From: a virus | Taxonomy: Duplodnaviria; Heunggongvirae; Uroviricota; Caudoviricetes | Reading direction: 5' to 3' (one strand) | Virus record (IMG/VR): IMGVR_UViG_2558860274_000001 | Coordinates: 1 to 42,135 of that record | Length of the DNA stretch: 42,135 nucleotides | In this document: positions 25,228 to 25,382 of the stretch, piece after piece | Numbering within the stretch: the stretch's first letter is position 1 | How the letters are laid out: each line of letters starts with the position of its first letter | The notes under the pieces: model-generated | What the model was told of the DNA's origin: nothing | Database searches by the model: none | The model's input: only the letters and a program-made list of their open reading frames with translations | Position numbers and translations under genes: made by a program

Positions 25228-25302
25228 TGGAGCGGGCAGCGGGAATCGAACCCGCATCATCAGCTTGGAAGGCTGAGGTAATAGCCATTATACGATGCCC
25301 GC
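25228..25302 (-). tRNA. tRNA-Gly (anticodon UCC), glyT-like
   Basis: Minus strand GCGGGCATCGTATAATGGCTATTACCTCAGCCTTCCAAGCTGATGATGCGGGTTCGATTCCCGCTGCCCGCTCCA; anticodon stem TCAGC/GCTGA, loop CTTCCAA. Confidence 0.85.
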
Positions 25303-25306
25303 ATAT

Positions 25307-25382
25307 GGTGCCGACTACCGGAATCGAACTGGTGACCTACTGATTACAAGTCAGTTGCTCTACCTACTGAGCTAAGTCGGCA
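25307..25382 (-). tRNA. tRNA-Thr (anticodon UGU)
   Basis: Minus strand TGCCGACTTAGCTCAGTAGGTAGAGCAACTGACTTGTAATCAGTAGGTCACCAGTTCGATTCCGGTAGTCGGCACCA; cloverleaf folds, loop CTTGTAA. Confidence 0.75.

Follow-up and report, generated by a model that had tools for sequence, protein, structure and literature searches.

A minimal Thr-Gly tRNA cassette with a predicted structured trailer between the Q and lysis genes of a lambda-like prophage

Introduction

Why does a lambda-like prophage carry two tRNA genes, tRNA-Thr(UGU) and tRNA-Gly(UCC), between its antiterminator gene Q and its lysis genes? We address this question for the virus record IMGVR_UViG_2558860274_000001 of the IMG/VR database, of which the whole stretch of 42,135 nucleotides (nt) analyzed here is called the window; the tRNA cassette is read on its minus strand (−), and all coordinates are those of the window unless stated otherwise. 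Among the reasons why temperate phages carry tRNAs, codon supply stands against defence evasion, and the commonest Thr allele of the cassettes studied here, including that of the window, has the nuclease-sensitive host sequence, a contrast that could separate the two.

The locus is best explained as a small tRNA operon embedded within the late leader of a lambda-like prophage. Its tRNA pair is ordinary, being one of the known phage late-leader tRNA cassettes and annotated already in hundreds of genomes, and in the literature we found no paper that describes the Thr-Gly prophage pair or the RNA segment behind it. What is added here is the exact host identity of both tRNAs, evidence for an autonomous unit reaching from promoter to terminator, and a conserved trailer with a predicted structure, which makes a concrete candidate for a non-coding RNA that is widespread, unannotated and easily testable.

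The tRNA pair and its relatives

Both tRNA genes are called by ARAGORN, tRNA-Gly(UCC) at 25228-25302 (−; anticodon tcc at position 34) and tRNA-Thr(UGU) at 25306-25381 (−; anticodon tgt at position 34), and no further tRNA is called by this program in the 42-kb window (2 in total). The Rfam tRNA model (RF00005; gathering score 29 bits) matches them with 64.9 and 73.8 bits, respectively, and alignment revealed 100% identity to E. coli K-12 glyT (75 nt) and thrU (76 nt) including the encoded CCA, a full-length identity that excludes chance. An earlier interpretation of this DNA from its letters alone (hereafter the sequence-only reading) had named both tRNAs with these anticodons and proposed tRNA predictors as a check; the calls by ARAGORN and Rfam and the identity to the K-12 genes bear it out. 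The pair thus consists of genuine, intact bacterial elongator tRNA genes that are alleles of thrU and glyT.

In the window, the two genes are separated by 3 nt (TAT) and follow the same order as in the chromosomal operon thrU-tyrU-glyT-thrT-tufB (with 8 nt between thrU and tyrU, 116 nt between tyrU and glyT, and 6 nt between glyT and thrT in K-12), but the prophage lacks tyrU, the 8-nt and 116-nt spacers, thrT and tufB, and its flanks are unrelated. The likeness to a chromosomal "glyT-thr arrangement" that had been noted before is mistaken, since the Thr gene is thrU, which lies upstream of the Gly gene, and the anticodon of thrT is GGU. Homology to the K-12 operon is limited to thrU (plus 2 nt on its 5' side and 1 nt on its 3' side) and glyT (plus 2 nt on its 5' side), suggesting that tyrU and the spacers were lost precisely and left the TAT spacer behind, to which thrU contributed one nt on its 3' side and glyT two nt on its 5' side.

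A search pattern composed of the tRNA-Thr 3' end, 0-30 nt and the tRNA-Gly 5' end had matches in at least 120 contigs of IMG/VR and, among species-representative genomes, at nine places (three each in E. coli and Shigella flexneri and one each in Citrobacter braakii, Enterobacter hormaechei and a Photobacterium, whose spacer is longer). Of 132 junctions, 119 have TAT as spacer, and the Thr-Gly pair is annotated in the deposited phage genomes phi467, vB_EcoS-689R5, vB_EcoM-606R7, PhiR47_1 and JLK-2012. Comparison with the tRNA sets of related prophages had been suggested by the sequence-only reading, and we carried it out by running ARAGORN on the 132 junction loci. More than one array type emerged: Ile2(CAU)-Lys(UUU)-Thr-Gly at 58 loci (53 complete and 5 cut at the 5' end), Ile2-Arg(UCU)-Thr-Gly at 33, and Thr-Gly alone, the form of the window, at 21 (Ile2(CAU) is labelled Met by ARAGORN and Ile by PGAP). 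The modular cassette to which these arrays belong is common among the lambdoid prophages of Enterobacteriaceae; it starts with Ile2(CAU) if this is present, continues with a slot of varying content (Lys UUU, Arg UCU, others) and ends with Thr and Gly, and the window holds it in its minimal form. Gly and Thr, previously singled out as a noteworthy choice of isoacceptors, simply make up the 3' half that stays constant in a widespread array of four tRNAs, and usually the pair occurs within such a longer array. Across the 132 loci, tRNA-Gly is unchanged in 113 and tRNA-Thr in 82 despite diverging flanks, which argues for purifying selection.

Where the tRNAs do vary, tRNA-Thr shows a D-loop variant (T16C/T20C) at 28 of the 132 loci and a G42T/T43C change in 4 of 132 alleles, one of them with the compensating changes A27G/C28A, whereby the CAG motif of the anticodon stem is lost. 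The tRNA in the second slot of longer arrays has one backbone with varying anticodons (Lys(ttt), Arg(tct), Phe(aaa) and Leu(taa); e.g., L001:2927-3003, L007, L006, L060 and L031); it carries an apparent ochre-suppressor anticodon (tta) at locus L091, and other forms could not be assigned by ARAGORN.

The trailer RNA

The ~230 nt from tRNA-Gly to the terminator (24996-25227, −) form a conserved structure as modelled from an alignment (A3) and supported by covariation. This trailer lies as the 3' external transcribed spacer (3'ETS) of a tRNA operon would, i.e., on the same strand, after the last tRNA and ahead of the operon terminator. Over the 291 nt that separate tRNA-Gly from the start of the holin gene, conservation is full in 64 of 131 related loci and partial in 89, and the 51 distinct sequences of alignment A3 fall into two types that are ~78% alike, type A from E. 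coli-like prophages and type B from, e.g., an Enterobacter hormaechei locus and phage HK639. RNAalifold folds this alignment into 58 pairs, 14 of which are changed on both sides. Extending the terminator stem of this fold by hand gives a 62-pair structure in which 97.6% of cells are paired, a share that drops to 39-48% in controls with the partners slid by 1-3 columns. Double changes affect 16 pairs and 122 cells of the structure, but only 4-10 pairs and 4-33 cells in these controls. Many trailer positions alternate between G-U and either A-U or G-C, and since the G-U pairs fit minus-strand RNA only, they fix the strand of the trailer.

Helices 1 and 2 of this model (25176-25221, −) correspond to a stem-loop that the sequence-only reading had placed just 3' of tRNA-Gly at about 25177 to 25222. 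The inverted repeat is present one base off, as GTCTTTCAGTC/GACTGAAAGAC at 25176-25186 and 25211-25221 and starting 6 nt past the CCA of tRNA-Gly on the minus strand, but it does not stand isolated and is instead the first helix of the ~230-nt trailer. The element is composed of an outer stem of 11-13 base pairs, a conserved internal loop (UGCGAUGAU/GGAGU), an apical GGG/CCC stem and a variable loop. Alone it is unremarkable (fold z-score of −1.59 for 88 nt); compensatory changes in relatives preserve its pairing, and 13-14 sequences have CG/UA instead of UA/CG at the pairs 8-51 and 9-50. Between types A and B, helix 1 changes in compensatory fashion from GTCTTTCAGTC/GACTGAAAGAC to GCTTTTCGGTC/GACTGAAAAGC, and so do a long-range helix within the trailer (25168-25156/25109-25097, −; TTATGAATGATCGC/GCGATCATTCATAA in type A and TTTTGAATGGGCGC/GCGCTCATCCAAAA in type B) and a third helix (GCACTCT/AGAGTGC in type A and GCATCTC/GAGGTGC in type B). 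The trailer further contains a hairpin with an invariant GU-rich loop (25096-25071/25064-25046, −). A small open reading frame (ORF) inside helix 1 (MMGKPGVTERRLGYE) was rejected as coding because it is frameshifted in type B relatives.

Of 5426 complete E. coli genomes, 536 (~10%) contain the trailer, which is unannotated in RefSeq and is also found in Enterobacter and in phage HK639. When loci were collected by a pattern for the trailer only, Thr-Gly was found to precede it at 105 of 113, and 42 of 131 Thr-Gly cassettes are followed by unrelated sequence. Compared to Rfam 15, the trailer matches nothing at the gathering score, and a permissive search of 24996-25227 gave only chance-level matches (E > 0.7), as did a search of the leader at a permissive threshold. 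A relationship to IpeX or DLP12 was rejected, given that the K-12 quuD-essD interval has only the holin gene in common with the window and that K-12 DLP12 lacks the trailer, and identity with PasA, PasC or PasD (gene coordinates in E2348/69 from table S6 of PMC8550237) was likewise rejected, with only 9-14 nt chance matches (E > 0.6). In phage HK639, the interval from Q to the lysis genes (2401-2775 of locus L139) holds an unannotated tRNA-Asn(gtt), the 3' half of a tRNA-Gly(UCC), a type B trailer and a terminator, and two more terminator-bounded non-coding segments lie beyond the trailer.

Judging from these comparisons, the trailer could represent an undescribed structured non-coding RNA family of lambdoid prophages that is a product of tRNA processing with a function of its own, a proposal that we put forward tentatively and consider possible if on balance doubtful. 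As the 3' external spacer of the operon, it would stop transcription before the lysis genes, and after removal of tRNA-Gly the trailer with its 5' hairpin would probably yield a stable RNA that may act in its own right. Possible roles are that of a small RNA (sRNA) or sponge acting via the invariant GU-rich loop, that of a decoy for tRNA nucleases, or that of a stabilizing or insulating leader of the lysis transcript.

Promoter, terminator and late leader

A sigma-70-like promoter of the cassette is predicted at 25448-25475 (−; TTGAAT-16-TATTAT followed by CTCTGCGG, with 9 of 12 matches in a promoter scan). Of 70 unique upstream sequences from related loci, 50 have promoter-like elements at fixed distances 5' of the first tRNA, whereas shuffled sequences average 6.8 and reach at most 14. 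The upstream families with these elements are mutually unrelated in sequence and include, each followed by a GC-rich discriminator, the window type (TTGAAT-16-TATTAT, CTCTGCGG) as well as TTGCAA-17-TATTAT (CCTGCGCCC), TTTGCA-18-TATTAT (TCTGCCTCC) and TTGCGT-17-TATCAT (TTCGCCCCC). The first tRNA lies 9 nt from the end of the −10 element if the array has four tRNAs; where Thr and Gly stand alone, the distance to tRNA-Thr is 58-66 nt, with 66 nt in the window. This 66-nt stretch (25382-25447, −) can fold as a long hairpin (GGTTCCGAGGG...CCCGAAGAACC); it shows no similarity to Ile2 or the slot-2 tRNA, of which it might have been a remnant, and only the tR'-proximal block matches relatives.

At the other end of the cassette, a terminator scan detected an intrinsic terminator (24996-25021, −; hairpin 25021-25006; GCCCGCTTTTGCGGGC followed by TTTTCTTTTC) that lies ~60 nt upstream of the holin start codon. 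Type B relatives have another sequence at this site which likewise is a terminator, with compensatory pairs. With a predicted promoter, a payload and a terminator, the cassette looks like a self-contained unit of moron anatomy, and it is probably transcribed also independently of Q from the predicted promoter.

Upstream of the cassette, the window contains a PR'-like element (25632-25672, −) with the −35 sequence TTGATT (25672-25667), the −10 sequence TAAATT (25650-25645), and AACGAT at 25637-25632, which we take to resemble the promoter-proximal pause element of lambda PR'. In an alignment with lambda 44499-44799, GGTAAATTTG and AACGATGGG are conserved between the two late promoter regions, and we infer that the PR'-like element serves as late promoter. 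It is followed by a tR'-like intrinsic terminator identified by the terminator scan (25570-25596, −; hairpin 25596-25577; AGCCCGCCTCCAAGCGGGTT followed by TTTTTTT), which aligns with the T-tract of lambda tR' and belongs to a block homologous in relatives. The spacer of ~190 nt between tR' and tRNA-Thr contains, besides the sigma-70-like promoter, a Chi site (GCTGGTGG; 25532-25539, −) directly below tR'. Taken together, the terminator scan and the Pfam assignments of the neighboring genes agree with the location given by the sequence-only reading, namely from a tR'-like terminator below Q to the pinholin gene. Its description of the locus as part of the late leader holds for the position and is incomplete otherwise, as the cassette has a promoter-like element and a terminator of its own. 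The claim that no toxin or other cargo is present also stood: the six ORFs of the interval between Q and S (52-95 amino acids) have no Pfam or PHROGs match, and they overlap the tRNAs or the terminator.

Codon usage

In E. coli, tRNA-Thr(UGU) reads ACA and ACG, and tRNA-Gly(UCC) reads GGA and GGG. A comparison of GGA and ACA between late genes and the host had been proposed from the sequence alone, and in counts per 1000 codons both are commoner in the late genes of the window than in 48 annotated K-12 genes: ACA reaches 11.3 in late and 15.4 in early genes against 4.9 in K-12 (odds ratio for late genes 2.0), and GGA 14.3 and 12.3 against 6.7 (2.2). The other two codons follow suit, ACG with 22.4 in late and 14.4 in early genes against 13.8 (1.5) and GGG with 19.3 and 12.3 against 11.7 (1.7), and Fisher p-values for the four codons in late genes range from 4e-7 to 3e-3. 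This roughly twofold enrichment fits supplementation by gene dosage.

Functional interpretation

We rank dosage supplementation by the tRNA pair first, ahead of counter-defence, and assign it a probability of about 50%. According to this model, the sigma-70-type promoter at 25475-25448 would transcribe the cassette in the lysogen, and during lytic growth Q-modified polymerase from PR' would read through both terminators. RNase P and 3' exonucleases would then free the two tRNAs, and the extra copies, amplified by phage replication, would raise the supply of two low-abundance isoacceptors.

Several observations weigh against this model and its parts. The enrichment is not specific to the codons of the pair: AUA and AGA (odds ratios 3.2 and 4.4) exceed ACA and GGA in this respect, yet the phage lacks the Ile2 and Arg(UCU) tRNAs of its relatives, and the gene of the major capsid protein, presumably the most highly expressed late gene, has 0 ACA and only 4 GGA codons. 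The host baseline comprises 48 K-12 genes only, and K-12 may not be the host of the phage in the window; that tRNA supply limits this phage is conjectured from codon counts. As to the operon itself, promoter scores of 9 matches out of 12 are as frequent as expected by chance in the 3-kb region, and the covariation of the trailer mostly separates two clades and would thus comprise few independent events.

A different kind of benefit would arise if the cassette replaced tRNAs that are destroyed by the Toprim nucleases of competing elements (P2 OLD or PARIS AriB), with the extra Thr(UGU) and perhaps Gly(UCC) sustaining translation once such systems fire. Degradation of host tRNA-ThrU(UGU) is how P2-OLD kills cells infected by lambda, and phage 21 has in its tRNA-Thr(UGU) a protection against this nuclease (PMC12445682); the phage encodes tRNA-Asn and this tRNA-Thr at exactly the site discussed here, from tR' to S21. 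The reported targets of AriB, Lys(UUU), Thr(UGU) and Asn(GUU) (PMC12409363), are the tRNAs of related cassettes and of HK639, and the slot-2 Lys(UUU) of relatives departs from host tRNA-Lys at positions 39-41, around the AriB cut site. The G42T/T43C change described above abolishes the CAG motif that P2-OLD reportedly needs, and by our own reading of its sequence tRNA-Gly(UCC) has the described features of an OLD substrate (CAG at 28-30, CUG at 40-42 and A37). However, extra host tRNA-ThrU gives little or no protection against OLD, and a resistant anticodon arm is required, in which the CNG motif is lost or the stem shortened (PMC12445682). The tRNA-Thr of the window equals host thrU and retains CUG(28-30)/CAG(40-42) and U36-A-A-U-C|A41, the sites of OLD and AriB, so that by its anticodon arm it falls outside the nuclease-resistant type of tRNA-Thr21 and tRNA-Thr6; the anticodon arm of the phage 21 tRNA has strongly diverged and that of the window is unaltered relative to host ThrU. 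In the literature on these nucleases we found none that targets tRNA-Gly(UCC), and we know of no nuclease that does. Late-leader tRNAs as a class plausibly serve defence evasion, but for the window pair counter-defence is less likely because its Thr allele keeps the P2-OLD and AriB sites, and we regard it as unlikely though second in our ranking.

It would also be conceivable that selection acts chiefly on the trailer RNA, as a regulatory or decoy payload for which the tRNAs are mainly processing handles that define its 5' end and ensure strong expression. The modelled structure is conserved across diverged sequence types, the trailer is nearly always fused to the 3' end of tRNA-Gly, HK639 retains it though its tRNA-Gly is down to a 3' half, and it ends in a U-tract terminator like Hfq-type sRNAs and displays an invariant GU-rich loop; 3'ETS-leuZ is a precedent for tRNA 3' external spacers as sRNA sponges. 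But the tRNAs persist without the trailer in the cassettes with unrelated downstream sequence and are strongly conserved themselves, and we consider this reading, argued from sequence comparison, quite improbable. Still lower in our ranking, and very improbable, is a neutral passenger, be it recently captured or decaying host DNA or a deletion remnant of the four-tRNA array, which would persist because it is harmless and because identical tRNA sequences promote the recombination of modules between phages. The tRNAs are indeed identical to host genes, the array of the window is the shortest form, and many matches between related phages have their homology breakpoint at query position 295-300, where tRNA-Thr has its 5' edge. 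Against it, the same junction, mostly with the TAT spacer, is found in four genera with flanks diverged by up to ~20%, which points to one old event followed by purifying selection and not to repeated capture, and promoter, terminator and trailer structure all appear to be maintained. Dosage supplementation therefore remains the reading that we favor.

Other features of the window

The prophage is a mosaic that is ~95% identical to E. coli prophages across at most 75% of a 22-kb segment. Upstream of the late leader, the window encodes a DUF968 gene (26877-27932, −), RusA (26496-26876, −) and the antiterminator Q (25678-26499, −; 273 amino acids; Pfam PF03589, E = 4.7e-51), which has 31% identity to lambda Q by BLASTP (E = 3e-39). 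This Q homologue carries an insertion of 68 amino acids with extra CxxC zinc-finger motifs, and the Pfam DnaJ zinc-finger domain scores just under its cut-off. Downstream of the cassette follow an S21-type class II holin (pinholin; 24721-24936, −; 71 amino acids with the dual start MKSM; Pfam PF04971, E = 1.4e-35), a DUF1327/YdfR gene (24366-24716, −), a lysozyme gene (23769-24302, −), and then Rz and Rz1, an HNH endonuclease and a P27-type terminase. The DUF1327/YdfR-family gene splits the pinholin and endolysin genes, whereas in the closest relative with the same Q (locus L002) the lysozyme gene comes directly after the holin gene.

The window contains 16 Chi sites where 1.7 are expected, a number attained by no shuffle, and 13 of them lie on the minus strand, i.e., the coding strand of the phage genes; among related cassettes, the commonest families of upstream sequence have kept the Chi site just past tR' in place. 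In the early region, we found a hok/sok-type type I toxin-antitoxin locus (30597-30920, −), with 102 bits for the Rfam sok model at 30750-30920 and a Hok-like ORF of 51 amino acids (MKQQKAMLIALIVICLTVIVTALVTRKDLCEVRIRTGQTEVAVFTAYEPEE) at 30597-30752. Adjoining it is a pair of ORFs, one of 216 amino acids (29781-30431, −) that overlaps the start of another of 368 amino acids with an N-terminal helix-turn-helix-like region (28697-29803, −), and this pair may be an accessory module for defence or anti-repression. At locus L002, a gene that is visible only in part and precedes the shared nin-region genes is annotated as ImmA/IrrE metallopeptidase, at a position different from that of the 368-amino-acid ORF.

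Comparison with known systems

Among known phages, phage 21 shares with the window the order of Q, PR', tR', two tRNAs, terminator and S21 pinholin, with tRNA-Thr(UGU) in the same position and on the same strand. Its Thr gene, the allele resistant to P2-OLD (PMC12445682), differs strongly from thrU in the anticodon stem. Unlike in the window, the tRNAs of phage 21 come directly after tR', leaving no room for a promoter of their own, the partner tRNA is Asn instead of Gly, and the trailer is different and shorter. The layout of phage 21 corroborates the likeness to the late-leader tRNA position of lambdoid phages drawn by the sequence-only reading, which had pointed to the Stx phages. In Stx phages such as 933W, reportedly described by Plunkett et al. 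in 1999, ileZ-argN-argO lie upstream of stx, past Q and PR' and before the lysis genes, and these tRNAs have been proposed to decode codons that are rare in the host. This cluster resembles the window in that tRNA genes of a lambdoid phage follow Q and PR' and precede the lysis genes, but the isoacceptors are others and the window is devoid of a toxin gene; relatives of the window have Ile2(CAU) and Arg(UCU) ahead of Thr-Gly.

For the trailer, the closest parallel in kind is 3'ETS-leuZ of the glyW-cysT-leuZ operon, a tRNA 3' external spacer that acts as sRNA sponge. Both segments reach from the last tRNA to an intrinsic terminator, and release by tRNA processing would follow in either case, but they are unrelated in sequence, and the trailer of the window is much longer (~230 nt) and, by its predicted fold, highly structured. 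PasA, PasC, PasD and the EcOnc sRNAs, which lie next to the holin-lysozyme operon, are comparable by location: they, too, are non-coding and belong to the zone of lambdoid prophages where morons insert, from Q to the lysis genes. The trailer has no sequence similarity to PasA, PasC or PasD2, and while PasA, PasC and the EcOnc sRNAs are convergent to the late genes, the trailer of the window is co-directional with them and fused to a tRNA.

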